Origin: Iphione sp. A-MEVVRFRX5
Lineage: Eukaryota
Reading direction: 5' to 3'
DNA: 64,000 nucleotides
Assembly: GCA_976226885.1 (NCBI GenBank)
Contig: OZ320315.1
Coordinates: forward strand, 64,170,001-64,234,000
Below, in pieces: positions 1,132 through 56,779 of this stretch. The notes under the pieces are model-generated. The model saw nothing but the letters and a program-made list of their open reading frames with translations, did no database searches and was not told where the DNA came from. Position 1 is the stretch's first letter. Every line of letters starts with the position of its first letter. Both the position numbers and the translations under genes were made by a program.

Positions 1132-2420
1132 TTTCACACATACATGATAGAAAATGAAAATGTCTACATGTACAAATACCTGGGAGTGCAAATTGATAGT
1201 TGTTTATCATATGAAAAACAGACGGACCTAGTGCTATCCAAAGTGGGATGTAAACTACACTACTTCAGGAAAATCAGAAGAATCCTTCGGATAAGAGATA
1301 GAATACTACTCCTAAAAACAACAATCCTGCCTATCCTGGAATATGGACTAATCCTATTTACTGAGAACCGCTCAGTTAACTATCAACGACAAGCTCGCAT
1401 GTACAATCGACTAATCAGAGCAGTGTTCTTTGAAGGATTCGGATCGACTGAATCCAGACGAAGATGTGGCTGCGTCACACTAGCCGAAAGAAGAGACTAC
1501 ATCATACTGACATTAATGTGGTACAGACACATAATGGGCAACACGACACGTACTGTGCACAGGAGGACCAGAGCAGATGGAAAGCCATTGTTCAGAGTCA
1601 GCCGGCCAAACTTTGAGGCATACCGTAGAAGCATCAAGTACAAAGGAGGCCATCTCTGGAACACACTACCACATAACATGATGGACCTGGACTCCTCCAG
1701 TTTCAAGAAGGTGGTAAAGAGCATAGTATAATGAGTCGTAAGCAATCCACACTAGGAGTAGACTGTACTTCTAATGAATATGCTCTAACATAGGCAATGG
1801 AGAACTGGGGTAAGCCAAAATACTTCTGAATCCAAAATTAAATCTGCGCAACTGATACTTGGGCACATGTCTAGTATCGGTCCTGCAGAATGTCGTAGCT
1901 TGATAAAGAGTGACTCCAGACACCGACGTAAACTTGAGACCTGACAACAACCTAATGTTACTTGGCATTCGAGCTTCTGTCTAATGTCAACCCCAGAAGT
2001 ACTACCTAGTGATTCTTACTCTAATCACAAAAGGACCCAGCCAGACAGGCATACCGAAGACATGGTCTACGTAGGAAATAATCTCATTTGTCACCTGAAC
2101 TTCCGTCTATTGTAAACGCAATACAATTCACATGCAGTCACTACAAGGACCATCGATTCTAATATATAAAGAAGTAACTCCATGCTGTAAAAACATATGA
2201 CATCTGGGCTGCTGTCTAATGTCAAATGGCTAATGTCCAAATTGTAAATACTCAAGTAATGTACGATCCATCCCTGTAATTACCAATATTCACAACCACA
2301 ACACATCCAAAACTGTACATTCCAATGAAAATTACTAAGACGACAAAGACCTGAGAAGCAACGTACGATCTGTATATCTCTATCAGGATAAATAAAGAAA
2401 ATGAAAAAAAAAAAAAAAAA
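1132..2420 (+). mobile_element. 5'-truncated CR1/L2-type non-LTR retrotransposon (ORF2 C-terminus, long 3'UTR, poly-A tail)
   Basis: ORF2-type C-terminal coding region, then ~690 bp 3'UTR, AATAAA at 2391-2396 and an A17 tail at 2404-2420. An in-frame stop at 1129-1131 marks the approximate truncation point. No TSD found. Confidence 0.85.
1144..1731 (+). pseudogene. LINE ORF2 C-terminal fragment (RT thumb and downstream region), open to its stop
   Basis: YKYLGVQIDSCLSY, KTTILPILEYG and SIKYKGGHLWNTLP are typical CR1/L2 ORF2 C-terminal motifs; the catalytic RT core is missing. Confidence 0.8.
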
Positions 2421-3117: not shown

Positions 3118-3214
3118 CTAGACGGAAAAAAAGAACCAGGGAGGTATTTTTCTCAACCAATAAAGCCTATATTGGCTAGCCTTACAGACGATAATAGACA
3201 GTAAGAATGAGTAG

Positions 3215-3722
3215 TGTAGCGTTTCGGTGTTTGGTACGAACAAAATGCGCATTGAGAGTGTTTCCTCTGAAAGGGTTGTCGGAGGATAATCCTCCGAGAT
3301 AGCCACCGGTGGCGTGGGGTGGGAAGAACATTCTAGAAACTCCCCCTGTGAAGGGAGTACGTGTGTACTGAGCACAGCTCAGAAGGTTCTAGAAAGGATC
3401 TCTCTGGAAGGATCCAAGGTAGTATAGGCTATGGAAGGTTCCAGAAGGGAACTCTCCAGAAGGATCCTATAGAGAAAGGTAGTATGTGCTGTAGAAGGTT
3501 CTAGAAGCACCCCTCCAGAAGGATCTCTGGGGGAGGGTGTTACTATTTTTAAGGATGTACCATGGCTAAATTTAGAGCCAGACTCTGTATATAAGGGCAC
3601 TGATTTCCTGAATAAAGACAGTTCTCATCCGGACTTGGAAGTGAGAGCAACAACGCATATTCTGTGTGGAAGTTCTTTATTTCGCGGTGGCCATCCGGCC
3701 TGACGACGACCGACACGTTACA
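3215..3722 (+). repeat. 5' LTR (508 bp)
   Basis: tgtagcgttt...cacgttaca; by eye identical to 10078-10585; TATATAAG at 3588-3595 and AATAAA at 3611-3616. Confidence 0.95.
3325..3507 (+). promoter_or_regulatory. Array of four perfect heat-shock elements (nGAAnnTTCnnGAAn) in the LTR U3 region
   Basis: aGAAcaTTCtaGAAa 3325-3339; aGAAggTTCtaGAAa 3381-3395; gGAAggTTCcaGAAg 3433-3447; aGAAggTTCtaGAAg 3493-3507. Copies in the 3' LTR at 10188, 10244, 10296 and 10356. Confidence 0.85.
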
Positions 3723-3724
3723 TT

Positions 3725-3742
3725 TGGTGGCAGCGGTGGGAT
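3725..3742 (+). other. Primer-binding site complementary to the 3' end of tRNA-Leu
   Basis: TGGTGGCAGCGGTGGGAT begins 2 nt after the LTR end. It is the reverse complement of ATCCCACCGCTGCCA-CCA, the 3' end of metazoan tRNA-Leu isoacceptors (recalled, not searched). Confidence 0.85.
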
Positions 3743-3774: not shown

Positions 3775-5322
3775 ATGGACACGAACACGGCGTCTCCAGA
3801 GAAGGATGGCTACGGTTCATCGGTATCAGACCAGAAGAGTTTGCGGCCTATACGAGAAGGAGGAAACGGTCTCCAGCGAAGACGGTGCGGCCCGGTCAGT
3901 GATTATTTATCGGCAACGCAGCGACAAGGGTCGGAATACGAAGATTCCGACATGATGAATGCGACGGACGAAATCGCCGACGAATCCACGAAGGATCAGG
4001 AGGAAGGTAATTCGCCTAATGGAGGGGAAGCGAGTGTTGCCGGAGGACGTGGTCCGGTATCGGTGGCGGTCTGTTCCTGCTCCGAGGGAGAGGAACAGGA
4101 GACGAATCAGTCACCAGGAGGAGGATCAGTTCGCGCATTCTCTCGGCAGTGGCAACCCCGAAGATTCCTTGAAATAACCTCAGGTGGTTGTGAGGAAAGC
4201 GGGAACCGACCAGGCCCCGGTGAAGATAGTGGATCCAATGACGCGACTTTGCCGACAGAGTCATGCAGTCGGCGACGGGTCGACCAGGAGGTGGAGCGGA
4301 CAGCGGGTCAGGAGGAACCGACCTCCGAATGGGACGGGTTACTGGAGGAATTCGGCACATTCCTCCGAGCACAGGAGAAACAGGGAAGGTGGGTACCCAA
4401 ATCAAGGCAGGTACCATCGACGCCCCAGAAGCCTACCGAATTTCCGAAGTGGTTTCCTCCGACAGAAGTGAAATCATCTTCTCGTTTGAAGTTGATCAAG
4501 CCAGAGCGATATGATGGGACGAACGACTGGGAAGATTGGCACTCCCGATTTGAAGAATGGGCAAAAGTAAGTGCGTGGGACGAAGAAACTAAGAAGAACA
4601 TGTTGGTATTGTCTTTAACGGGGGCTGCACGAGTATTTTACAGCGATTTAACCTCTGCAGAGACTTGTACGTATCAGCGGCGTGTTAATGCCCTGTTTCA
4701 TCGATTCGGAAAAGGCAGGAGGGAAATTCGGGCAGTTCAGAAGTTGACTACTCTTCGGAGAACTGGGAACCAAACTCCTAGGCAGCTAGCGAATGAGGTG
4801 TGTCAGCTGGTATACCAAGCGTACCCCGATGTGAGCAGGGAAACGCGAGATTTTCTCTCGGTGGACTTCTTCCAGAAAGCTCTGGACGATAAGATGAAGT
4901 TGAGGTGTGTTTGCGCAAAGATAGGAACTCTGGAAGAAGCGATACAAGTGGTAGAGAGGGAGGAACGGTATGCCAGTAGGGGAAAAACTCCGACAAAAGG
5001 GGATGACGCAGACCAACTTGAGGCGGTAAGAAGAAAGTGCGAGGAGAAACTGGCTTGGAGGGATGCTGGACTCTATCGGAGGGAAGCACCAGCAAGAGAG
5101 AGGTTGTTTCCGAAAAACATTAAGAAAGGAAGAAATGAGTGGGGAAGAATCGTGTGCTGGCATTGCAGATCGGAGGATCATTTCAAGAGAAACTGCCCAC
5201 ACCTGCGGCCGAATGTCAAGCCAGCTGTAACTTTGGTAGAACTTCCGGGAAACGGGGAAGCGCCACCGCCTCCAGCTGCCAAGGGGGGACGGTGGCAGGT
5301 TCAAGTCTGTGTCTCCCTGTAA
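3775..5322 (+). CDS. gag: Gag, intact, 515 aa from the first ATG after the PBS
   Basis: Retrotransposon capsid-like block KPERYDGTNDWEDWHSRFEEWAKVSAWDEETKKNMLVLSLTGAARVFY and CCHC knuckle CWHCRSEDHFKRNC. The track's start at 3664 is a GTG inside the LTR. Confidence 0.9.
   Translation: MDTNTASPEKDGYGSSVSDQKSLRPIREGGNGLQRRRCGPVSDYLSATQRQGSEYEDSDMMNATDEIADESTKDQEEGNSPNGGEASVAGGRGPVSVAVCSCSEGEEQETNQSPGGGSVRAFSRQWQPRRFLEITSGGCEESGNRPGPGEDSGSNDATLPTESCSRRRVDQEVERTAGQEEPTSEWDGLLEEFGTFLRAQEKQGRWVPKSRQVPSTPQKPTEFPKWFPPTEVKSSSRLKLIKPERYDGTNDWEDWHSRFEEWAKVSAWDEETKKNMLVLSLTGAARVFYSDLTSAETCTYQRRVNALFHRFGKGRREIRAVQKLTTLRRTGNQTPRQLANEVCQLVYQAYPDVSRETRDFLSVDFFQKALDDKMKLRCVCAKIGTLEEAIQVVEREERYASRGKTPTKGDDADQLEAVRRKCEEKLAWRDAGLYRREAPARERLFPKNIKKGRNEWGRIVCWHCRSEDHFKRNCPHLRPNVKPAVTLVELPGNGEAPPPPAAKGGRWQVQVCVSL
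5247..5296 (+). other. -1 programmed ribosomal frameshift signal at the gag/pol junction
   Basis: Slippery heptamer G GGA AAC (5247-5253) in the correct gag phase, an 8-nt spacer, then a hairpin GCCACCG(5262-5268)...CGGTGGC(5290-5296) extended by cctcc/ggggg pairing. The -1 frame (ORF 5139..5528) carries the protease remnant. Confidence 0.75.
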
Positions 5323-7034
5323 AAATTGCTGATCGGAAGATGGATCACTTGATCGATACGAGGACTGAAGCAGCTGTTTCAAAGGAAGAATTCGCTCCAA
5401 GTGATATCGGTCGAACGCAGCTTCCCGGCGCCACAGAACAGGTAGCTCCAACTTTGGGTCGGGGAATCATGACATTTGAAGCAAATGGGTACAAGTACGA
5501 GATGCCAATAGTTTTGCTAAACATGTGAGTAAAGGAAGATCATCGGAAATTGAAAGGAACCACCAGGGGAAATGTCTATGCATTGGGCAGAAAATATTCC
5601 GAAAAACAGTTTTTTTCGAGAAACTCAAGAAATGCGGTGAGAGGAGGGTCGACGTAGGAAGAATGCCTCATGAGCATGGCTAACATGCTGCAGTTTGAGA
5701 AGATTCCTTGAAGAAGAGTTCGGAGAGTGGTACAACACCTGCGCGATGCCGGGCTGAAATCCAAAACCGAAGAGATGTGACCTCTTCCTGAAGCATTTCG
5801 ATCCCTTAGGGTACCTTGTAACAAGAGGGGGACATAGGAAGAAACACTGAGAAGATTCAAATTATTGAACATGTACCTGACTTTGGTTGTGTGTTTCCTC
5901 GAAGGGTGACACAATGGGAGAAGAATCATTGGGATAGCAGAAGACACTTGAAGAAGACACTGGTGTGAGCCTCGGAACGATGACGATGCTTCCGGCGGTC
6001 GGAGAAATCTGTGATTTGCCGAGTTTTGTTCCGAAGAAAGAAAACTTTGATGACGGTTATAGGAAGCTTCCGCCCCGGAAGGGGTGATGGAAGGCGGATG
6101 GCACTCTTTGCACGTCGGAGCTGCAGCGGCGAACGCGGATGACAGCAGTAGTCGTTCGTGAATAAGTTCGGAAAACCTGCAGAAGAGTAGAAGACAGAGT
6201 ATGGCCAAGGAGTGCGACACCGGAAAAATCCTGCAAATTGCCCTGGTTTGACTCTACGATCCCCAGTACCAACGGGTGAAAAGGGGCAAGCTAAGTTTTC
6301 TTTGGAAGAAGATCCTCCGTCTTGTGTGAACTAGATCAAGGCAGGCATGTAATGTAACATCATGGAGCCACCTTGACGATCAAAAGTATTGCTCCGTTGG
6401 GAGGAATAGCTGAAAGGGGGTCTTTGCGGTTAAGAAGCCAGATGAACACTGCAAGTGATTTGTCAAGTTGTCTCTGAGGGGAAAAATTCCGAAAGCAATG
6501 ACAAGACGAAGTTATCAGATTAATCCTCCAGTCATGTGGGTAGCAGAGTGAGTGATTTAATTTATCATGGGATTAAAACGGTTACCTGAAGATTTGAAGT
6601 TTGTAAGTGGGACACTACATCAAGTCCTGCATGGATTTGGGAAGAGAAATTCTCAGCTACAGGAGATTTTGTCACATGAAGATTATGTGATCAGCGCTAT
6701 ACGATCAGCAAGAACTTTGGAAATGAGCAATTCCAAACAAGTGGTCTTGGATGACTATGGTAAACTGCAAACACCAGCAACTGCAGAAAAGGGAATTGAG
6801 TTGTCTACACCTGTAAGAGGTGACATGCGAATAAGCACGGGAAAAAGGATGGTTGTGCACAAAAACAAAGTCCACCCGTATTCTGGTGGGCGGTTGCCAA
6901 AATGGGTAAGGGAGGCCATGCAAATCCAGACAAGTCTGATCAACTTTGGTGGGCCTCGTAACGGTGACGACTTACCTTATGGCAGGAGGAGTTATTGGTC
7001 GGGTTCATCCTCCGACGACGATAGCTCTGTATAG
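5253..7034 (+). pseudogene. pol: Collapsed pol: protease remnant, RT thumb remnant, possible RNase H trace, integrase C-terminal remnant
   Basis: LIDTR in place of LIDTG (5355-5363); HLRDAGLKS/PKRCDLFLKHFDPLGYLVT (~5735-5825, frameshifted); DDAS (~5980). No YxDD and no integrase DDE core seen. Many stops and frameshifts; only ~1.8 kb long. Confidence 0.8.
6567..7034 (+). pseudogene. Open 155-aa segment resembling the post-catalytic C-terminal part of Gypsy integrase
   Basis: GLKRLPEDLKF resembles the FGRxxRLPxDL motif; RISTGKRMVVHKNKVHPYSGGRLPKW resembles the ..VVHxNRLKPY..P.W end of Gypsy integrases. Confidence 0.6.
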
Positions 7035-8220
7035 CACACTAAGGAGGCGGCTTCCGAGGGAGGAGGGGTGGGTGGCGTTCTAGTCACCGTCGGTTCAGAG
7101 AGAATGCCCACTTCTTCTCCGAAGCCGGCCATACGGACCAATCGGATGTATTGATCCAGGCCTCCTTGGTGCGTCTGTGCTTACACATGCTCAGAGCTGT
7201 TAGCAAAGAGCAGGGGAGTTATGTCCTCCTCTACATGAACTGCATCGGTAAAATTTCCCAGAACAGCTGCTGGGAAAGCCGTAGAGGTGAAGATGTTGGA
7301 GGTAGAGGAAGAAATACAGGTGATAGAATAAATTTCCATTGTCAAACGGGAGTTTTGGGACCAGCAAGAGTCAATGTAGCTGACAACTGAACCACGGCGA
7401 AAGGAAGGATGATAAGTGTACCATCGACGTTCAGTTGAACACGGGAGCGTGGATGTGGCCAGGCCTGCAGGGCTGGCGCAGTTTCTGTTTCCCCTTCATC
7501 ATCATCCTCGGTAGAGAAGAGCCGGGGGGCACAGGGCGTGAATCGGAGGAATAAGGCAGACATGGACTGTCAGCTGGAAGTTTTGATTCACGCCAGTAGA
7601 TGTCTCAGGGTGTGGTAGATTGACTTGCTGCACCGAGTTCGGGCTCGATTCTCCGACGAACGACACGAGAACGAAGCATTCTCGATAGCGAGGCCAGGGG
7701 GTGAGAGTAGGAAGAAAGAACGATCTAGGAGGACGTTCTGGTGGGAAGGGTGAAGAAGTTGCCAACGCACGTATGCGAAGGGCGACTCCAGCATCCACAA
7801 ATGCTAGCTCAGCATTTCTCGGGGTAAGAGATGTATCGCGAGGGTTACACCAGAGTAACACACCACATTTCCTGTCTGGCAGAAGGTGCCAAGGAAACAT
7901 CGCAGAGGCAGGTGAGCAGTAGCCCTGAAAATGAGAACAAGAAAGGAGCATGTAAAAAGGGGCACAGTCATCGGGAAAAAATGGGGAGGAGCAAAAATCT
8001 AAAGATCGGAGGCAAGAGAAATGACAGAGAATTCACATTTATCGGAGAAGAAAGAAACATTATGGGAAAAGTGGAATCGGAAACGGGAAGGAAGATCAAA
8101 GGTTGTCGGTGTTCGATCCTACCCCTGGGGAGGGATAGGGTAGACAGAAGGGAATTGTAGGAATAGCAAAGTAATCCTCCGAGATGAGAGGGCGGGAAGT
8201 TTTGAACTGCCCACCACCGG

Positions 8221-9738
8221 ATGACGCAATCCCGAGATGCACTGTACCGGAACGTAATTTCTGCCGCTACGTCTTCGGAGGAGATCAAGATGGGGATGCA
8301 TTGTAAGCAATGCCCGAAGTTGACTTTCAAGAATAAATATAATTACGAACGGCATCTGCGAGAGAAACACGGAGAGCAAATGGGAGGAGGAAAGGTACGC
8401 TGGATGGCTTGTCCGTGGTGCAAGGGAAAAGCGTACGCATGTGACTATACCGGGTGGGAGAGCCACCTTATCAGCCAACACCCCGAGGCGGCAGATGAGT
8501 TCGTAGGACAGGGTGACTTGTATTTCATCTTTGCGGTCAACCCTGCCAACTGGAAGGTCCCTGCCCTCACTTCTGCTCCAGAAATTTCCCGGATAAAGGC
8601 GACGGGGTTGATTAAGCAGTGGAGAGAACGTGAAGGGAGAGCTATCCCTTTACGCGAAGCACGCCAGCGCCGAGCATCGCAACAGTCAACAAGCCAGGAG
8701 CCACAGCCGGGCCCCTCCGAAGAACCCCCTCGGAAAGTTCAGAAAAAGCAAGCCTCGGAAGAAGTCATCGATGTACAGCAGAGGAAACCAGCAGCTCCGG
8801 GAAGTCGGGAGGCAGCGTTAGCGCTAGATGTGTCGGATGTTAGTCCTTCCTATGACACGCCTTCGGTGGGACGCACCGCCGAACAATGGATGGCTGAGCA
8901 CGAGACAAGTGGTGACTCCCATGTTGGGAGTGGTGCTGGAGGAAACGTTTCTTTAATCAAAACGTTCCACGTAGACAGCCCCATCGATGCAGCTTCCGAT
9001 GACACCGTTCTGGAAGAGCACCCGCGTGGAGCAAGTCCAGCTCCTGCCAAGCCACCTAGAGATACGACGAGGGAAGAGGATACCGCCCCTACTAGTCTGG
9101 CGCATCAACAGAGTCAAACGGTTTTATCGGCATTTAATATCGCCGATGCAGAGATACAGACGTCGGAGGGGGAGGCGGATCAGCAACTACCAGGTGAAGA
9201 ACTGGAGGAAACCGACCAATTCCATGACTGGTTACGTGCGATAGCAGATGGGCTGGTACGCCCGTTTTGTGGTGTCGCCAGAAGGGCTCCAACGAAGACA
9301 AGCTGTACTCTCCTTAGTCTGGAGTGGCCACCAAAGAACTGGCGACAGTTTAGCCCGGAGCAGAAATTCCTGGTGTCACTCTCGGCAGCCACCACAGTGG
9401 CTATGAGTCAAGGAACTCTCAGGCCAGGAGATCCTATTCAGCCGTTGAGGGATCGACCCTATCTCATACTTCCAGGGTCACGACGGCCGAAATCCCGAGC
9501 TGGTTGGGGCTTGCCTGATGATGGGTCTCAGACGGAGCTGAGCAGGCATAATGCGACGATCCAACAGATAGTCACGCTACGGGAGCAGAACGAACATGAT
9601 CCGATAACGCCGGCAGAGTTGGAAGCTCTAAACAAGTCCGCGGAGGAGGCACGGGCCGAACAGGAAGATACTATTTTGGCCCATCTCCGAGAAACGTCGA
9701 AGCGACGCAGCGTGTTCTTGTCTCCGGAGGACGTTTAG
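8221..9738 (+). CDS. Accessory ORF3 of the LTR element, 505 aa, with two N-terminal C2H2-like zinc fingers, a long disordered middle and an unassigned C-terminal domain
   Basis: CKQC-x13-H-x4-H (8302-8370) and CPWC-x14-H-x4-H (8410-8481); basic NLS-like PPRKVQKK; uninterrupted 1518-nt ORF between pol and the PPT; no obvious env-like signal peptide or TM segment. Confidence 0.85.
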   Translation: MTQSRDALYRNVISAATSSEEIKMGMHCKQCPKLTFKNKYNYERHLREKHGEQMGGGKVRWMACPWCKGKAYACDYTGWESHLISQHPEAADEFVGQGDLYFIFAVNPANWKVPALTSAPEISRIKATGLIKQWREREGRAIPLREARQRRASQQSTSQEPQPGPSEEPPRKVQKKQASEEVIDVQQRKPAAPGSREAALALDVSDVSPSYDTPSVGRTAEQWMAEHETSGDSHVGSGAGGNVSLIKTFHVDSPIDAASDDTVLEEHPRGASPAPAKPPRDTTREEDTAPTSLAHQQSQTVLSAFNIADAEIQTSEGEADQQLPGEELEETDQFHDWLRAIADGLVRPFCGVARRAPTKTSCTLLSLEWPPKNWRQFSPEQKFLVSLSAATTVAMSQGTLRPGDPIQPLRDRPYLILPGSRRPKSRAGWGLPDDGSQTELSRHNATIQQIVTLREQNEHDPITPAELEALNKSAEEARAEQEDTILAHLRETSKRRSVFLSPEDV

Positions 9739-21840: not shown

Positions 21841-21962
21841 GATTAGGGACGGCGTAGAGGGAAAGGTGTGGTAGTTTAATTTGCTCTGGCCTCGGGTTGG
21901 GACCAGCCCGAGGCCAGAGCAAATTAAGCTACCACACCTTTCACGATACAAAGTCCTTAATC
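21841..21962. repeat. Foldback inverted repeat (40-bp arms, 2-nt loop, plus 10-bp outer arms)
   Basis: 21861-21900 pairs with 21903-21942 (38 Watson-Crick pairs and 2 T-G); 21841-21850 pairs with 21953-21962 (9 WC and 1 G-T). Confidence 0.9.
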
Positions 21963-22534
21963 CCTGTTCTGATATGGTTTTGAATGGAACTTACCTTCTG
22001 TACGGTTTACATTCTCCATAATTCATCTCCTTTGAAGTGTTTCTACTCCTACGAGGCATGTTTACAATTGCCTCCATTGTGGATTAATGCAGTTTTCTAG
22101 GTCATGAGCATGTGTGAAAATATATAGGTTGGGACGGATTTTTCCTTAGGGATTGGTTCCCGGTTAAAAGACTCTTTCGGACATTGTAAGTATATGAGTT
22201 TCATTCTCAACCATATTAGAACCAAAGACTAGTAACAGCGCACAGTCTAGTTTACTAGATGGGGCGTGGGAGGTGCTGCTTTGGTCTGTTTTAATTGATC
22301 TTTCGGGGAGATTTTTGGAAGGAGTCCCAATTTGTCGATCAGTACAATCTACCATCACTTTCTTGAGTTGGTCACAGGGGATGACTTGATAAACTTGTAA
22401 CAATTCTCTAGATATTGCCGGCCTTACATCAACATTTAATGACGTGTGACGATCATAATACTAATATGGTTACATGTGAGCAATAGTGTCACTCAAATGT
22501 TGTCTGTACAGATTGATTATGCAAGGAATCATGG

Positions 22535-23089: not shown

Positions 23090-23245
23090 TTTGACCAAAT
23101 TTGGCTGATTGTTGTCAATTTTTGGATGAATTTGGCTGGTTTTTGCCATTTTTGGATGAATTTGGCTGGTTTTTGGTGAATTTTGGATGAATTTGGCTGA
23201 GTTTTGCTGATTTTCGGATGTGGCTGAGTTTTGCCATTTTTTTGA
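23090..23245. repeat. ~30-bp minisatellite, about 5 copies
   Basis: atttttggatgaatttggctggtttttgcc and variants. Confidence 0.85.
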
Positions 23246-25465: not shown

Positions 25466-26309
25466 GACAGTGATTAGACTAGGAATCAGTCACATATTAC
25501 AAGGTTAAAGATGAACATTTGTTAGATGTTTCACTTTGTTTTAAAAAATACTTTCATAAATTTGTTAATGTGGGGGAGACCCCCCAAACCACCTTTTTCC
25601 TTCCAATATTTTCATGAATTAAATGCATCTTTAGCATGACTTCCAGAAGTTTTTGTCACTTTTCGAGAAATTCAGAGCATCTTAAGCTGAACTTTTCATG
25701 AATTAAACACACCTTTAGTGCTACCTCTGGTAATACTTGCCACTTTTTCATGAATTAAATGCATCATTAGCATAGCCTCCTGAAATATTCCTTTTTTTCA
25801 CTATTATAAGTGTGGTGGGAGACCCCCCAATACCCCATTTTGAACCTTTTTTCATGAGAACGACCTTGGCTCTCACCTGGGTGGACCCAATCTTCTTGAC
25901 TGGGTCAGCACATCACTCAGTTGTAAGGGTGGGGTTGTTTAAATCAGATAAAATCCTCATGCACAACATTACACACCTAATAATATCCCCGCTCACTCTG
26001 CGAAGCTCGCACATTATAGTGTGTAATGTTGTGCACTTGGACTTTATCTAATACATAATTAATGCTCAAAGTTTGTTTGTTGCTGTTTTTCTTTATGAAG
26101 GTAGCACTTATAAGCTGCTTCAGTCTGTATAATTATTGTATTATCCTCCCAAACTTGTGAAGTGAGTCATCAAGGAACTGCCATCCTGTTTTTTGTAAAA
26201 TCAATGATGCGTTGACTTATAAATCTCTACCCGGGAATGATCCAAGATTCAATACCACTTGAAAACAATCATTTCTAGGGGACAATTCCCGATTATCATG
26301 AAAACTTAA

Positions 26310-27360
26310 TATTCATAGATTTTCGTAAAGCATTTGATATGGTAAATCACTCAATATTATTGAGAAAATCATCTGATAATTTTAAATTCCAAAACATGGC
26401 AGTGAAGCTTGTAAAAAATTATTTGGAACATAGACAGAACTACACGTATGTCAATGAGTTGAGTATGGGTAATATTGTAGTGGGAGTTCCTCAGGGATCT
26501 ACGCTGGGGCCACTCCTATTCTCACTATTCTTAAATTATTTGCCAGAGAAAATATCAAGTAAAGTGACTTTGTTTGCAGACGAAATATTGGTGTTGGTTC
26601 AAGCAAGATCACTTGGAGAATTGAATCAAAAGACCCATGTAATATGTAAAGAAATTGAAGAATGGTGCAGAAGAAACAAACTGTTATCAAATCCTAAAAA
26701 AGTAAAATTATGACAATCTGGCCTGGAAGAAAAAAAAAGGAATTGAAAATAGGGAAACTATGAAGATGTCAGGGGGAAGTTATATCCTATACTGACATGT
26801 ATAGATATCTGGGGATTATAATTGATTCCACGCTCAAATTTGATGATGAACTACACAAAGTTATAGGCGTAATGAACAAAAAAAACTGTATCTCATCAAT
26901 AAGATTTAATTGAACTTAAGACCTCAGGATTCTTTACTTCTATATTAATGTTGCAATAGTCCACATCTGGACTATTCACTAGTATCCCTCACATGTAATA
27001 ATCAAAACACTTTCTCTCAACTGCAAAAAATACAGAATAGGGTTTTATTTGTTATATAGAAAAAAATACGAGAAAATGAGTATCAATAGAAGACTGGATT
27101 TACTGACTATTATGCTACCAGTACTGTATAAAATGATTACGCTAAAATTGCTACCTTTAGTAGAAAACTCTGTATTATACTATGAAGACGACAAATGTTT
27201 GAAATTGGTAACCCTGAAGTCCGAATTAGTGAAGAATTCTTTTATTTTTGATAGATATAAGGTCTGGAACAAACTGGATATATTGTATAACAACTTTGAA
27301 AGCTACAAAGATTTACTTCAATATTATAAAGTTATGTCCATGCAATATCATATTTATTGA
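26310..27360 (+). pseudogene. Degraded CR1/L2-type LINE RT fragment
   Basis: DFRKAFDMVNHSILL, GVPQGSTLGPLLFSLFLN, LFADE (mutated YADD) and YRYLGIIIDS, with frameshifts. Confidence 0.85.
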
Positions 27361-32665: not shown

Positions 32666-32764
32666 GTCTAGTCACATTACCCTCCTAAAGGCTGGCAATC
32701 CTATCCATTGGGCCACAGGGGCTATACATAGTTTAGGCTATACTTCTGTCACCTCCTGACCAGT

Positions 32765-33180
32765 CCTCACACCTCATTAGGTACTGGCCCTGGCATTGGC
32801 TGTCCTCCTGTCGCTCATATAAGTTCCCACACCTCGTCTGGTGTTATCCCCACCCTTCCCCATCCTCCTGTTGCTAACAGAAGTCTCCACACCTGGTCTG
32901 GTGTAATCCTCACCCTTCCTGTCCTCCTGTCGCTCTCAGAAGTCTCCACACCTCGTTATGTGGTATCCCCACCCTTCCCCGTCCTCCTGTTGCTCATACA
33001 AGTTCCCACACCTCGTCTGGTGGTATCCCCACCCGTCTCCATCCTCCTGTCGCTCATACAAGTTCCCACACCTCGTCTGGTGGTATCCCCACCCGTCCCC
33101 ATCCTCCTTTCGCTCTCAGAAGTCTCCACACCTCATCAGGTGTGTCCCTGGTATTTGGCCGTCCTCCTGTTGCACTCATA
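32765..33180. repeat. ~60-bp minisatellite, 7 copies
   Basis: ccacacctcgtctggtggtatccccacccgtctccatcctcctgtcgctcatacaagttc and variants. Confidence 0.9.
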
Positions 33181-33182
33181 GC

Positions 33183-33380
33183 TGTAAAATGGTTGCAAAC
33201 ATTCTAACCAAAGAAAAATGTTCTTAAAATGTTGTAAAACAGTTGCAAACATTGTTACCAAATAAAAACTTTCTTAAAACGCTGTAAAATGGTTACAAAT
33301 GTTGTAGCCAAATAAAAACATTCTTAAAATGTTGTAAAATGGTTGCAAACGTTGTAACCAAATAAAACATTCTTAAAATG
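33183..33380. repeat. ~51-bp tandem repeat, about 4 copies
   Basis: gtaaaatggttgcaaacgttgtaaccaaataaaaacattcttaaaatgtt and variants. Confidence 0.85.
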
Positions 33381-37829: not shown

Positions 37830-38150
37830 ATGACAGAAGCAGAGATGGACACAGAGCCAGGATCAGCTCCAGGCCCAGCTGCAGGACGTGCTGAGGAAGG
37901 CCCTGCACAAGGTAGGGACTGAGGCAGGGACTGAGGCAGAGGCAGAGGTAGAGGCAGGGGCAGAGGCAGAGCCAGGGCCAGAGACAGAGGCAGAGGCAGA
38001 GGCAGAGTTAGGGGCCATGGGCATACACTTCAGAGGAGGAGGAGGGGGAAGAGGAAGAGATGTTCAGACAAATGGAGAGCTCCACCTCAGACCAGGACTC
38101 TGACTCTGAACCAGAGCCACAGCCACAGCCACAACCTAAGCATGCTAAAG
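37830..38150. repeat. Low-complexity (GAGGCA)n/(AGCCAC)n tract after the Sola relic
   Basis: Repeated gaggcagaggca and agccacagccac hexamers. Confidence 0.7.
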
Positions 38151-42166: not shown

Positions 42167-42540
42167 CCCAGCAAACACATGGCATTTTCACAATGTTTTA
42201 TGAAGAAATGTTATGAAATTACATTTTTATTATGTTTTAATTCTGTTTTCAAAAGATCTTGAAAAGAGCTTTATAGAACATTTTCAAATAACATTTTACA
42301 ATGTTTTAATAACCTTTTCCAAAACATCTCCAAAAGAGCTAAACAAAACACTGTCCAATAACATTTTTACAATGTTTCCATGACCTTTTCCAAAACATCT
42401 CCAAAAGAGCTTAACAAAACATTTTCAAATAACATTTTTACAATGTTTTGATAAGCTTTGAAAAAACATCTCCCAAAAGTGCTAAACAAAATGTTTCAAA
42501 TAATATTTTTACAATATTTTCATAATCTTTCTAATACAAC
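42167..42540 (+). mobile_element. End of an EnSpm-like non-autonomous element with ~69-bp subterminal tandem repeats
   Basis: Starts cccagcaaacac; about 4 copies of aataacatttttacaatgttt...ttccaaaacatctccaaaagagc. No partner TIR found. Confidence 0.55.
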
Positions 42541-44479: not shown

Positions 44480-45360
44480 ATTCGGCCAACACAGGAGAAG
44501 TATACACCCTGGAGGTCCTCCCACCATCCAGGGGGGCATAAAATTGGACTAGGAGAGTGCTTTGCAACAGTCAGTGCAGAGCCGTCAACACATATCAGCC
44601 AGCCACCAAGCGCCACCGTGTCTGTATCACTAATGCCTAGAAGAAGGAATTATGTGAATACAACCACCCAAGCTGGTCTCAAACTGCACTCAGACAGTTA
44701 TTTCCGATCCAGTAGGGGTAAAAGATCATATGACAATTGCCCTGTACTGCAATGCAACTTGCACTGAAAAAAGGCCTTTCCTGATAGGAAAAGCAGTAAG
44801 TACCAGGTGCTTTGGGAAGAATTCTGATCCTGGAATGTATGTCCATGACAGGCATAACACCAAGACCTGGATGACTTCCTTCCCGTGGGGAGAGTTCCAC
44901 CAGATGATGGACGGCAGGACCAAGGCACAGAGTTGTCATTACATCCTCCTGTGTGATCATGCTGGCAGTCACAGATTATCCGAGAAGCTCAGCGACATCA
45001 CACTGAAATATTTGCCTTCCAATACCACTTCCCATATCCATCTTCTGGATGCTGAGATTATAGCTCATTCAAGGCCCAGTATAGGAAAAGGCTGGTCAGG
45101 CATTTTCTGGGGTGTGTGGAGGATAACAGCCCCATGACTGCTGACCTTAGGAAGGCCATCCTCATGGTGCATGGGGCTTTGCAGGCAGTCAGCTCCACTA
45201 CCATCCAGAGTAGCTGGAGGCATACTGACACCCTTCCTAGGACACCCAGACCTGTGGAGGGTGGGGAGGAGGAGGAGGAAGAGGAGGAGGAGAAGGAGGA
45301 GGAGGAGGAGAAGGGCATGCCTCTATCTGACCTGCAGACCATTCTCCAATCACAGTGATC
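44480..45360 (+). pseudogene. pogo/Tigger (Tc1/mariner, DDE_1) transposase relic
   Basis: KDHMTIALYCNATCTEKRPFLIGK..STRCF, HNTKTWMT, ILLCDHAGSH and LKYLPSNTTSHIHLLDAEII, followed by an acidic poly-Glu tail; frameshifted. Confidence 0.85.
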
Positions 45361-51300: not shown

Positions 51301-51679
51301 TTTCCCATATCTGACAGCGTGATTATGTGGAAGAGAACGTGGGACTTGGTAAATAATGCTATGTTGGATATGTTTTGCCTGTATGTAATACTTCACCAAC
51401 GCTCTCACAAAACTTTAACATTTGCATTAGCAATACCATCACAAGATCATGCATGCATTCTTCCATGTTAACTCCACACCTCTTATTTCCTATTCTTCCA
51501 CTCTGTTGACATAGAAAGCAAAGCCTCGTTATCACTAAGGGAGATTTATTCATTGAGTAATTGTACTTGCGGTTTACCTAGGTGTGTTTTTATGGCATTT
51601 GGGCCGGGGTATTTTTATTGTCTCAAATCATATATCACGTTTTATATCAAATCATGTGTTTGTTTAAGAATGGCCTGCT

Positions 51680-54225
51680 CTGTCAGGTATATATAACTTG
51701 TCTATATAGTTGGCATACAACACCATGGTCCGATCAGATGATCTGATGGTTACTAATCAGATGAATGTGTATCAGATGTCAGATGTCAGATTCTGGTGAT
51801 ATTATGAAATAGTTGTCTATATCGTGAAAATTGTCCGTTTGCAATATATGAGTATTGCAAAATCATGGTATTGTGCAAGCCACTAAGGCCCTGTTTGTAT
51901 ATAAAAAGGCACAACCTTTCTAAATTAACAGACATTCTGTCTTTGCACCTTGGGAGAGTTATATCCAGCAGAAGTCCTGCAGTGGAGTGAACCAGATTTT
52001 TCTGTGTTGGAATTGCTTTGCACTGGATCTTGCGACATGTCTGTTAGAGGTCAACAAATGCTGGTACATTATATTTTGGTGGCAGTGGTGGGATCTTCAA
52101 GAAAAGAGATCATGAACTTCAACCTCATCGATAAGTGATGGCCACAGTTTAGATGGAAGAGATTTAGGAAACAACAAGAAATCCAGTGGTTGAGCATTCC
52201 AATCCCGGGCCCGAGCAAGACCTCAATTATTAATGGACTGGAGAATCTGGTGGACTAAGGATTAGAAACAGAGGACAAGGAACAAGATATGGACCACACA
52301 GTAGTAGCTGGAAGAACACCAAATGTTGATGGGCAGTCACAAACGATCAGAACATCAAACAGCACTGGGTTGATAAAGCAAGATGTAGGAGATCAGCCAG
52401 CTGGTTCCATCAGGACCATACCAACAGATAGTGTCCTTGCACCTGGCAAAGTACAGGTTACTGTCAGCGGGCATGATGAGAATCCTAATATTCCAACAGG
52501 ATTGCCAAGGAGATTGGTGAGCATTTAGCATGGAGAAAAGGGAGACTGCCACACAGATGGATGACAGGTACTCAGATTACCTCTACCCCACAGAAAAGGC
52601 ATCCCCAAGATGAAATGAAACCACTATCTCATTTTAGTCTGATCAAACTGGGAAGGTATGATGGGAAATTCAATTTGGAAGGATGGAACTCACAATTCCA
52701 GGAGTGGGCTCAAATCAGCAACTGAGATGTAGAGACAAACAAAAGTATGCTTGCCTTGTCCTTGATCGGAGTGGCCCAATCCTTCTATGGAGACTTAACT
52801 ACAGTGAAAACCTCTACCAACCAGAAGCATACATCCGCACTCATGGAACAGATTGGTGGAAGGTCTGTGCAGTCCAGGAACTAGCTACCCTTCTCCAGAC
52901 TAAGGATCAGATGCCTAAAGAACTGCGGATGAGGTTCAACAATTGATGCATCAAGCATATCCTGATGTGGATTGGGACTGGAGAGATTCTTTCTCATTAG
53001 CATTTTCCAGAGGGCTCTAGGTTATAAGCTGGAACTGAAATACATGAGAAGTGATGTGAAAACTCTGCAACAATCGGTCAAAGTAGTAGAGATGGAAGAA
53101 TGATATGCCTCACAAAAGAAAATTCATGCAATACAAGCAGAAGACAGAATAACTGAGGAGTTGCAGACAATAAAAAAGGAGTTTGAACAAAACCTTTCTG
53201 CATTAAGACCATCACATCCAAAGGCAAATAAAAGCTCTGAAAAGGGGAAGGGTCTGTCAGACAAGAAAAGTAAAGTCGATATGCAAAATATCAGTTGTAA
53301 GGCAGATGGGAAATTTGTGTGTTGGCAATGGTTCTCTGAAGACCATTTTAAAAAAGACTGTCCCCTTCTAGATGTGAAAACAGGAAAATCCACTACTCTT
53401 CCAAAGCAGGAAATCCCATTGGCACCACTGGCTGAAACCAACGTATAGGTACGGTGGTGGGAAGTGGACTATATTTGCTAGCACCGATACAGTCCGAATG
53501 TTGACTGTCTGATTGATACTGGAGCTGAGATAACATTGGCCAAGGGAGAATTTCTTGCCTCAGGGATCAAAAGGAACACAATCTCTGAATCTTACCAGTA
53601 TCACAGGTGAAGTTATTCGGACATGAGGTCACGGCAACACCAGTTGTATTTGCCTGTGTGGATGAGAAGTCATCTTGGGAAATGGTTTCCTAGTAGAAGA
53701 AGAAGCTGTAATTAGTTATCTTAAGAAGGAAGTAGTATTGAAGGAGCAAGTGCATCCTATAGTCTTAAAAGTAGATGGGTGAATAAATCAAGTTAAAGTT
53801 GAAGAAAGCTAACCAGAGCATCTCAGTTATCTTTTCCAGTGGTCTAAGGAGGACTTGTCTGAAGATAATTGGGAAATAGTGAAACAAGTGTTGATAGTCT
53901 TTAAGGATTCCTTCTCAACTGGGAGTGGGGATAGACAAACTGGAATAATTAAGCACAGTATAGATGTAGAAGGGCATCCTACCATTAAGCAACATGTCCG
54001 ACATCTACCGCTTGGAAAATGACAGGAAGAACAAAATTAGTTCAAGAAATGTTGAAAACTAAAGTGATAAGCAAAAGTATAATTTCTCAGGCTAGCCCTA
54101 TTGTAATGTTGGGAAAAAGGATGGATCTACTCGTTTTTGTGTAGACTACAGGAAACCAAATGAGATCACCCATAAAGATGCTTATTCATTACCTCAGATT
54201 GATGATTCACTAAATGCTGTTAAAT
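51680..54225 (+). mobile_element. Old, 3'-truncated Gypsy element related to the element at 3215-10585
   Basis: PBS TGGTGGCAGTGGTGGGAT (52077-52094); gag relic IKLGRYDGKFNLEGWNSQFQEWAQISN*DVETNKSMLALSLIGVAQSFYGDL; broken knuckle CWQWFSEDHFKKDC; protease CLIDTGAEI; RT start DGSTRFCVDYRKPNEITHKDAYSLPQIDDSL. The LTR start is uncertain; TATA-like tatataaaa at ~51898-51906. Confidence 0.88.
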
Positions 54226-56779
54226 GTTCGTTCTAAAACAGGGATTCTATTAATCCTAATTCCATTGTTTTTACAACTTATTTCTAACACACCTAATAGG
54301 CGTTAAGCTTAGTGTGGTGGACTGGCCAGTGTTCTTAGAGAAACACGGCAGACACTGCTCATGCTATACAAACTGCGCAGTTCCATGGCATCATCTGTCA
54401 CATTAGAATCTGCAATATTCAGTTAGTGAGAGTGATCTAGACAACTGATCTAAAGCTTTTAGGTAATGCAGATGAAACCCTCAGCCTGACCAGAGGAATT
54501 CACTTTAGTCCTACTTCTGTGTGATCCACAATTATGGTATATATAGGATTTTGTCTCCCACGTACAAAACGAACGTGAGAATCTGTTCGAAATTGAATTC
54601 AGGGGAAACCGAGGATAATGTGATCTTCTCTTAATTCCAGTGATTGACAGTAGTATGCCGCTCCATTACGGCAGTCATTAGCTTTCACATAGATATTGTC
54701 TTGCCATAACCCTTCTAGTTATTGACCAGTCAGTCTGGACTGATACAACATCATTTAACTGTGTCAGTATTTGCTGCGAAAAATCATTGGTTGTCGGGGG
54801 GATTGAATGCGATTGATCTCTGAATTTCAGTATAGTTAAAGGCCCCTTCCAACTATTGAAAATCAGCGAACATTGCCATATGCGTCGTTGTCATCGATTG
54901 CCTCTATAGTAATTGCTTCTTGGTCAGGATGTAATGCGGTTCCATGAGTCTTTAGTCGCCATAATCTTTCAGACATTCTTAGTCAGCGCGCCATGCATTC
55001 ACATGCATCTTTCTTTACGTTTTGGACTTCTCTTCTTGGGAAAAATCCTTCATATTACCTTTATTTTTATTGAAAACCAGAGGAAGAAAGTGGAAAGAAT
55101 TTTTTTAAAAATACCCTCTTCCCAACCTAGGTTTTTGGTTGGTTGTTACAAGAAACACGCCTATTTCTTCTTTTTTTTTGGGGGGGGGGCAAACCGGACA
55201 GTAGAATGACTATGCTAAAATTGTCTGCATCATGGGTGTTTCAGGATGAGGAGGGCACGTAAATATACAGTGACCCCTCCGGATGCGGCCACCTCAGTAA
55301 TCAGGTTACCACACTAATTCAGCCAGCAGCAACGGCTGCTAAGATATTATCATTATCACCATAATCCTCATAATCATCATTTCTGTGGTGTATTTCGGTG
55401 TATATTCGTTAACGACCCATGTTAATAAAATATTGAGCTGGCGCGTGAAGCTCAAAGGAAAAGGATGGGAAAGAAGTTGCTGTGATTATCATGTCTCTAG
55501 GAAACTGAATATCCAGGTTTATATTTATGTAGTCCTCTATGATTTTGAGATGACAAATCAGTCAAAATAGTATTGTTTTATAGGGAATACAAGTGTTTTA
55601 CAGAGACTAGTGACATCTTGGCGAAACATCGTATATGGCTACATTGAAGCATGGTTTCCTAACAATCTGAATAAAACGTATCGACAATTAATTACTATCT
55701 TGGAGCGCCACGGTGAACGACGGCATTTTCATGCTCTTCTATGTCACGTCTAACCTATCAACTAAACTTGATGGAAAGGACCGCAAAAAAAAGGCTTCAT
55801 TCCATTAGAGAGATCATTGAGCTACATTATAAGTCATACCCACTCAGGTACTTAGCATTTGTAACTGGTCAACACTAGAGGCAACATCGGGGGGCCAGGA
55901 TATCTAGATAGGCTTCGTGTTGTCCTTCAGCCTCCACTATTGGCTCAATATACTCCTAGAGTAGGTAGGTGTATCCTACCAGGCGTGCAATTACGGAGCA
56001 TTGACTGCGAGACCACCGCTAAAGTAGCTTCGTATGGATGCAGTGTTTAAAGCCGTTACAAATAGATCATTAAAAGGGGCCTTACGGCATGGGATAAAAT
56101 GAAATGCGGATGTGGATCACGTATATCTTTACTATTCTTTCATTTTCCTTCTTCTTAATGGAAGGGTTGGTAAGACGTTTGCACGTACACCTATTCCCAG
56201 TGTCAAATGCAAAGCTGTTATGAACAGAACGGGCGATAAATAGTCATTATGTCCCTACCCATGTGTCCTTTAATAATGCATAAGGCTGAGAATCTGCAAT
56301 GACAATCCACTGTCGATGCGTTCTCCTGAAAACATATCTCTAATGATGATCACAAAGTATTACCTTACCAGTATCAATCTTGACCCATGGGTCGCTAACC
56401 CTATGGAGGACCATCTGTTCCAGACACTACAGTTATGTTTCCAGTGCCATAACTACAGGTACTTTGGAAAAGTTCCTACCTGACAATTTAAAGCAAAAGA
56501 TAACCATAAATGGGTCATTGGTAGATAATACATATATACATGTAACAGTTGAAGGAGATATCATGAGAGGCTCTTAACTGTGTATATTAGTCAAGGCAGG
56601 ATACCACTGTCTTTTTCAGGACACAGATTATTTATATTTTTACTAAGGCCTATTTACACAAGGTTTGTTCCTAGAGAAGACTCAATTCGAGGATAGACCA
56701 AAAGGATAAGTAAGAAATACTGTAAAAGGGGTTAAGGATTATATCAAGGTGGACGGACAAAAATGGTTTAAGAATAAAT

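Follow-up and report, generated by a model that had tools for sequence, protein, structure and literature searches.

A Ty3/Gypsy long terminal repeat with four perfect heat-shock elements as a candidate heat-inducible promoter

Can the promoter of a long terminal repeat (LTR) retrotransposon be switched by the heat-shock factor (HSF) of its host, and what could such a switch still achieve for an element whose pol gene is destroyed? Both questions are raised by a single locus in the window, the whole stretch of 64,000 nucleotides of DNA that was analysed here. The locus carries four perfect heat-shock elements (HSEs; nGAAnnTTCnnGAAn) in each of two identical 508-bp LTRs. In our view this Ty3/Gypsy LTR probably has, in its U3 region, a heat-shock promoter that HSF can induce. 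The TATA box is preceded, at a distance of 60-260 bp, by four canonical HSEs of three pentamers each and by three weaker sites, and the motif, its spacing, its place in U3 5' of TATA and the conservation of its core fit HSF binding.

The element and its coding parts

The element lies on the plus strand and shows the features expected of an LTR retrotransposon. Direct LTRs with TG...CA ends (5' LTR, 3215-3722; 3' LTR, 10078-10585) are 508 bp long and 100% identical (508/508). A primer-binding site (PBS) of tRNA-Leu type is found at 3725-3742; read as reverse complement, it includes the final 12 nt given for tRNA-Leu(UAG) in a supplement of PMC13524379. A polypurine tract (10065-10077) directly precedes the 3' LTR. 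Within the 5' LTR, the TATA box TATATAA is located at 3588-3594, and transcription would start about 30 bp further on, near 3620. The AATAAA poly(A) signal at 3611-3616, a conserved LTR motif (PMC3601003), would play its role in the 3' LTR copy. The 3' LTR could also drive heat-induced transcription outwards into the flank. As a putative, imperfect target-site duplication of 4 bp the element is flanked by GTAG and GTAA, which agree at 3/4 bases with one mismatch. The flanks 3195-3214 and 10586-10600 have similar 10-bp words (GTAAGAATGA / GTAACAATGA), which suggests insertion into a short degenerate tandem repeat.

Self-BLAST of the LTR revealed two adjacent palindromes in distal U3, just 5' of the first HSE: an imperfect one of 19 bp (3279-3297) and a perfect one of 12 bp (3302-3313). 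Both may be protein sites. The 14-mer TAATCCTCCGAGAT occurs identically in the U3 palindrome (3287-3300) and about 40 bp 5' of the start of the third open reading frame, ORF3 (8172-8185), a coincidence expected about 0.05 times by chance. A common regulator site or an internal promoter is possible.

The intact gag gene (3775-5322, plus strand) encodes 515 amino acids with a capsid-like core and a CCHC knuckle, the Pfam zf-CCHC match (E 0.001) being under the curated cut-off. The protein resembles Atlas clusters annotated Retrotrans_gag/Ty3_capsid (0.96), and its relatives include two unnamed gag-pol proteins, P0008 and P0009. The former is a full gag-PR-RT-RNase H-IN protein matched with E 4e-14. 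Against PDB sequences, the gag core matched nothing but designed helical proteins and, weakly, a Copia VLP (E 0.14). Judged by its gag, the element is of Ty3/Gypsy type, as the sequence-only reading had proposed.

Between gag and ORF3, pol is reduced to a deleted and decayed relic of about 1.75 kb (5298-7034, plus strand). A protease motif (~5298-5390), the end of reverse transcriptase (RT; ~5752-5838) and a segment resembling an integrase tail (~6762-6977) were recovered by weak tblastn matches. As a collinear chain they score 181, compared with 104-162 in 15 controls, with most single pieces at noise level. A six-frame Pfam scan of 5200-8252 gave no RT, RNase H or integrase match, a PDB sequence search with one frame of the relic gave 0 matches, and the longest plus-strand open frame between gag and ORF3 measures 157 amino acids. 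Lacking an intact pol, the element is to be classed from its sequence as non-autonomous. Since pol is destroyed, a point that the sequence-only reading had left unmentioned, this copy cannot transpose by itself and its RNA would need the enzymes of an autonomous partner for transposition; heat could still raise the RNA. In the 1.2 kb from the pol relic to ORF3 (7035-8220), no coding content was recognised. Candidate splice acceptors are present at 7513, 7595 and 7881, and a candidate donor near 4005.

ORF3 (8221-9738, plus strand) is intact although pol is destroyed. It encodes 505 amino acids, with two C2H2-like fingers at the N terminus and a WPPKNWR block at the C terminus, separated by a long middle part of low confidence in the AlphaFold model (mean pLDDT 35). 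No env match was obtained in Pfam or among the Atlas look-alikes, and an assignment to the errantiviruses was rejected because ORF3 is not env-like. A full HMMER scan of 1.84 billion representatives yielded 3 matches. Only the unnamed P0006 has both the finger region and the WPPKNWR block; the matches to P0005 and P0007 seem to be noise from repeats or zinc fingers, and these two were discarded as relatives. A word-based search returned 0 relatives among 8000 scored candidates, and the Atlas offered only unnamed clusters at 0.90-0.92, for which its recognition value was low. ORF3 perhaps represents an undescribed accessory protein family of Gypsy elements.

Identical LTRs together with intact, CpG-rich open reading frames indicate a recent transposition, even though gene conversion or assembly collapse may also make LTRs identical. 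Pol appears to have decayed while the lineage went on replicating, which points to a long-lived non-autonomous element with a recent insertion here.

The heat-shock element array and its conservation

In the 5' LTR, matches to GAAnnTTCnnGAA start at 3326, 3382, 3434 and 3494. Counted from the leading n, these are the positions 3325, 3381, 3433 and 3493 given by the sequence-only reading, and its distance of 80-260 bp to the LTR TATA box agrees with the 81-263 bp that we measure from TATATAA at 3588. The 3' LTR holds the same four sites at 10189, 10245, 10297 and 10357 (offset +6863). At each of the four sites per LTR, at least three contiguous inverted nGAAn pentamers form a canonical HSE, and all of them are located 5' of TATA and of the presumed start site.

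The array is a real feature and not a product of chance. The window contains 8 matches to GAAnnTTCnnGAA, that is, 4 distinct sites counted twice, one set per LTR. Shuffled windows gave a mean of 0.91 and a maximum of 4, and at least 8 matches were reached in 0/100 shuffles. In the remaining 62,984 bp outside both LTRs there is no perfect HSE in either orientation. Dinucleotide shuffling of the LTR, repeated 20,000 times, gave a mean of 0.007 HSEs; at least one site appeared in 139 of the shuffles, at least two in 2 and at least four in 0. The expectation of 0.004 per LTR that had been calculated earlier is right for one site; the four sites do not count as independent events.

The four units are built differently. 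Unit 1 (3325-3344) consists of three perfect pentamers and a fourth with one mismatch. In unit 2 (3381-3415), the perfect three-pentamer HSE is followed by a degenerate site in 5-bp register, and in unit 3 (3433-3467) by a second GAA-CTC-GAA-ATC site, likewise in register. Unit 4 (3493-3526) combines a perfect HSE with a degenerate site that is 1 bp out of register. All are on the plus strand. Units 3 and 4 share the second site CTCcaGAAggATC; in unit 2 it reads CTCtgGAAggATC, and in unit 1 it is largely lost.

The proposed tandem triplication of about 55-60 bp did not hold up in that form. The units start 56, 52 and 60 bp apart, and unit 1 can be aligned with units 2-4. The array was not listed by Tandem Repeats Finder at score 30. 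The common 33-bp double motif is 82% identical between units 2 and 4. Once motif and spacer columns are set aside, identity among the units is 35%, compared with 26% by chance, and flank similarity is clearly above chance in 1/6 unit pairs only (units 3 and 4, 13/26). With flanks so weakly similar, the duplication must be old and loose, and the case for it rests mostly on the double motif.

Against this decay of the flanks the HSE core stands out. Over the four units, 9/9 core columns are invariant, compared with 6/38 non-core columns (Fisher p 4e-6). All core bases are kept (36/36), with GAA, TTC and GAA at exact HSE spacing and variable nn positions. In a neutral star-tree model, in which an ancestral HSE is copied into four units that then drift, all core bases would be kept with P 8e-5 at a spacer identity of 0.61, with P 0.005 at a generous identity of 0.75 and with P 0.05-0.11 at 85% flank identity. 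These figures are computed over the four units of one LTR, and the test is partly circular, as the motif served both to align the units and to select the locus. Core invariance despite decayed flanks points to selection on the GAA/TTC bases.

The same data bear on a passive origin. Duplication of U3 may simply have copied a single chance HSE that does nothing, or the array may be maintained because of a structure that the genomic RNA forms near its 3' end. A lone perfect HSE is to be expected by chance in some LTR families, as the 139 of 20,000 shuffles indicate, and tandem repeats are common in U3 (PMC3601003). Moreover, the array region folds slightly better than shuffles (z -2.16, 4/200). 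This signal is a modest one that a palindromic motif would be expected to give in any case, and RNA structure was judged secondary; and passive multiplication does not sit well with 36/36 core bases kept while the flanks are down to 35% identity. We regard a passive origin in either form as very unlikely.

Another factor, encoded by the host or by the element (e.g. the ORF3 protein with its two C2H2-like fingers), could recognise the conserved unit and merely overlap the HSE consensus. At intervals of 24-35 bp the word GAAGG(T/A)TC comes back, and in units 2-4 the second site has invariant non-consensus bases, among them a C and an A (9/9 columns). HSF binding alone does not explain the latter; homogenisation or a second factor may be involved. 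In a scan of U3 with 20 motif patterns, the three HSE patterns were the only ones to recur four times. STAT N3 (TTCnnnGAA), BCL6, ETS, AP-1, CRE and MRE sites were dismissed as explanations of the array, being absent from U3, and p53 half-sites were rejected on the same scan. A kB-like site of 11 bp occurs once, at 3447, and could be counted in favour of another factor. The alternatives scanned are thus absent or single, the columns invariant over all four units are precisely GAA/TTC/GAA at HSE spacing with variable nn, and HSF is expected to bind such sites anyway. That a different protein accounts for the array is therefore hardly probable, and HSF remains the preferred ligand.

An older relative of the element in the same window lacks the array. 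It is 3'-truncated and extends over 51570-54230 on the plus strand (5' end approximate). Its PBS is nearly identical, its TATA context is the same (51898), its gag stretch is 60% identical at the nucleotide level, and protease and then RT remains follow. Its CpG o/e is 0.22. From TATA to U5 the two LTRs show a weak likeness (3/500 shuffles as good), and in U3 none (265/500 shuffles as good). The best site in an HSE scan of the relative's LTR has 2 mismatches. Its U3 contains instead TCAGAT(G) five times (51734-51791) and TTGCAA/TTGTGCAA three times (51839-51878), repeats which we take to be E-box-like and C/EBP-like, respectively. Canonical HSEs are thus present here and absent from one related LTR, and the array is probably a lineage-specific U3 module, by comparison with a single (n=1), old and decayed comparator.

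The preferred reading of the array as an HSF-inducible promoter would imply the following course of events. A motif block of about 25-56 bp would have been duplicated locally in the lineage and then kept by selection on the element. Upon heat or other protein-damaging stress, trimers of the host HSF would occupy the array in a cooperative manner and start transcription at about 3620. This RNA would serve as gag message, perhaps as ORF3 message, and as genomic RNA, at a time when much host transcription is down. Protease, RT and integrase for transposition would be supplied by an autonomous partner elsewhere in the genome.

CpG depletion of the promoter and the host background

The HSE array and the core promoter lie in a CpG-poor zone of about 317 bp (3314-3629) with one CpG, at 3360. 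Between 3325 and 3627, this is 1 CpG compared with 14.7 expected, while the LTR parts on either side have CpG o/e values of 1.19 and 1.37. No other 303-bp segment of the element is as CpG-poor as the HSE zone (0.07); the next lowest value outside the promoter is 0.24. TpG/CpA is not raised in the zone (0.84), so that the void is not due to decay by deamination. GpC is low as well (8 compared with 14.7 expected), and 9/187 host windows are equally CpG-poor. When the repeats are counted as one unit, the void has p 0.10 against the host background and p 0.006 against the level of the element's coding regions. As an ONSEN-like evasion of methylation, the CpG void is therefore suggestive only. The sole CpG of the zone sits in TACGTG (3358-3363), presumably a hypoxia-response-like core; its position there could be due to chance.

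The CpG o/e of gag is 0.98, that of ORF3 0.92 and that of the pol relic 0.77, compared with 0.51-0.71 for the flanks. The host genome is CpG-depleted, which would imply methylation. A Pfam scan of 159/169 open frames of at least 68 amino acids outside the element brought two RT fragments and a DDE transposase past the curated cut-offs, and no host gene. The RT fragments (13965-14600, minus strand; 26279-26710, plus strand), matched by RVT_1, are probably of LINE type. What looks by eye like a further LINE C-terminal piece, probably also an RT fragment, lies at 1132-1731 (plus strand), with no Pfam match. The transposase at 44658-45355 (plus strand) is a broken DDE_1 copy, which we assume to be pogo/Tigger-like. 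A short degenerate TTAGGG-like array at 686-719 is probably the end of a small repeat element. LINE-type RT fragments, DDE transposase, TTAGGG-like repeats and CpG depletion would together fit a large methylated animal genome.

Other repeats in the window comprise an inverted repeat pair (10936-11028 / 17340-17432; 93 nt, 89%, 6.3 kb apart) and a hairpin with 63-nt arms (21838-21965), both probably MITE or DNA-transposon remains. Minisatellites are found at 32762-33380, 42216-42530, 23098-23220 and 37898-38015, with periods of 60, 50, 71, 31 and 6/12 bp. No tRNA or Rfam match was found in the window. Two further candidates were set aside: a GATA-finger match at 16480, under the cut-off and rejected on reading, and an HSE-like stretch at 16749, for which blastn and nhmmer gave no support as an LTR relic. 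Among bacterial and archaeal contigs, collections ill-suited to an animal element, a pattern search for related loci gave 34 matches, 0 of them confirmed, and the double-motif pattern had 0.

A more far-reaching interpretation would combine these features. The locus might belong to a long-lived pol-less Gypsy lineage that lives as a stress-triggered satellite, with its own gag and ORF3, a tandem HSF enhancer purged of CpG against shut-off by methylation, a flood of RNA and Gag on heat, borrowed enzymes, and an ORF3 protein that perhaps binds the palindrome of its own U3. Taken as a whole, we hold this to be rather doubtful. If true, it would be the animal counterpart of the two-part strategy of ONSEN, in which HSF is hijacked and methylation evaded, and the sister LTR with its swapped motifs would show that this Gypsy group exchanges stress and tissue enhancers by local duplication.

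Heat-responsive elements in other systems

The closest known counterparts are LTR retrotransposons of the flatworm M. lignano, for which PMC12801592 reports canonical HSEs in 6/137 LTR families. Strong heat induction is described there for 4/4 Ty3 families with one to four HSEs each, 3/3 of those with at least two HSEs, with a mean log2 of 8.0 at 37 C (~250-fold). The other 2/6 families, Copia elements with one site each, were not induced. Mutation of the HSEs abolished heat induction of a reporter, and RNA-seq and qPCR were also used (PMC12801592). With these demonstrations at hand, the novelty claimed by the sequence-only reading for an animal LTR element was overrated; the flatworm study describes itself as the second validated case.

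The likeness is close. The Ty3/Mdg4 families concerned (Mlig-id115|Mag, id36 and id55|CsRN1, id38|Gmr1/Osvaldo) are, like the present element, animal Ty3/Gypsy elements with 1-4 canonical HSEs 5' of TATA, were found with essentially the same three-pentamer pattern, and gained their HSEs in a lineage-restricted manner (PMC12801592). The four perfect sites seen here equal the highest count in that study. In contrast to the present element, the flatworm families bear RT and were tested by RNA-seq and reporter. Here, pol is destroyed, a zinc-finger ORF3 is intact, the sites have GAA-TTC-GAA orientation with extra degenerate sites, and the genome is CpG-depleted. Two HSE 13-mers and a PBS 12-mer had no match in the 5 supplementary files of PMC12801592, in which line breaks could hide one. 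The element is probably not one of the M. lignano HSE families.

HSF1 and HSF2 have developmental roles. The purpose of HSF binding to the array might be expression in development or in the germ line, or repression, and not an acute response to heat. Under physiological conditions HSF-1 represses Cer19 retrotransposons, which carry HSE-like sites (PMC7084138). Expression in the germ line pays elements most, and the M. lignano reporter was seemingly absent from the gonads (PMC12801592). Four perfect sites beside a TATA box, however, are the layout of strongly inducible promoters, and the flatworm families with several HSEs were induced in 3/3 cases (PMC12801592). We find a developmental or repressive role unlikely and prefer acute induction by heat.

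In plants, heat-driven LTRs are known from ONSEN/ATCOPIA78, COPIA37 and TERESTRA of the Brassicaceae. HSFA2 binds the ONSEN LTR (PMC3907296), and the ONSEN HSE arose by duplication of a proto-HRE (PMC5059998). As in these elements, the HSF sites here are located in U3, were built by duplication of a proto-site and lie in a promoter poor in CG sites (PMC3907296, PMC5059998, PMC13602373). The plant elements are Ty1/Copia retrotransposons for which HSFA2 binding and extrachromosomal DNA have been shown, whereas the present one is of Gypsy type and known from its sequence (PMC3907296, PMC5059998, PMC13602373). Unlike in the ONSEN type, the CpG void is here confined to the HSE-TATA zone and does not cover the whole LTR. 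AtROMANIAT5 is likewise a heat-responsive, incomplete and non-autonomous LTR element (PMC5059998); it is a plant Copia element that lacks integrase only (PMC5059998), whereas the present element has lost almost the whole of pol but retains open frames for gag and a third protein.

Among animals, Caenorhabditis Helitrons are transposons with repeated HSEs bound by HSF-1 (PMC6927752). They differ from the present element as rolling-circle DNA transposons with many HSEs and no LTR promoter (PMC6927752). Cer19 of C. elegans and copia of Drosophila are animal LTR elements too, and both respond to heat to some extent. The authors speak of their sites as HSE-like or weak, copia is induced mildly, and Cer19 is under repression by HSF-1 when the temperature is normal (PMC7084138, PMC3907296, PMC12801592). 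HSF sites in Drosophila transposons are a further animal precedent (PMC6649756). In the literature covered, which includes few subscription papers, we found no report of a pol-less animal Gypsy element with an HSE array, a CpG-free promoter or an ORF3 of this type.

If driven by HSF, the element would represent a further independent gain of HSEs, with four perfect sites, identical LTRs and a CpG-depleted host. Each new insertion or solo LTR would bring a strong heat-shock promoter to host genes. The element is a ready case for asking whether retrotransposons of an animal of this kind are set in motion by heat stress, and whether avoidance of CpG accompanies the capture of HSF outside plants. 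The general picture is unchanged by it: the principle of the heat-switched LTR is already established in plants and in a flatworm, and the element described here is a fresh example of it and not a new principle.
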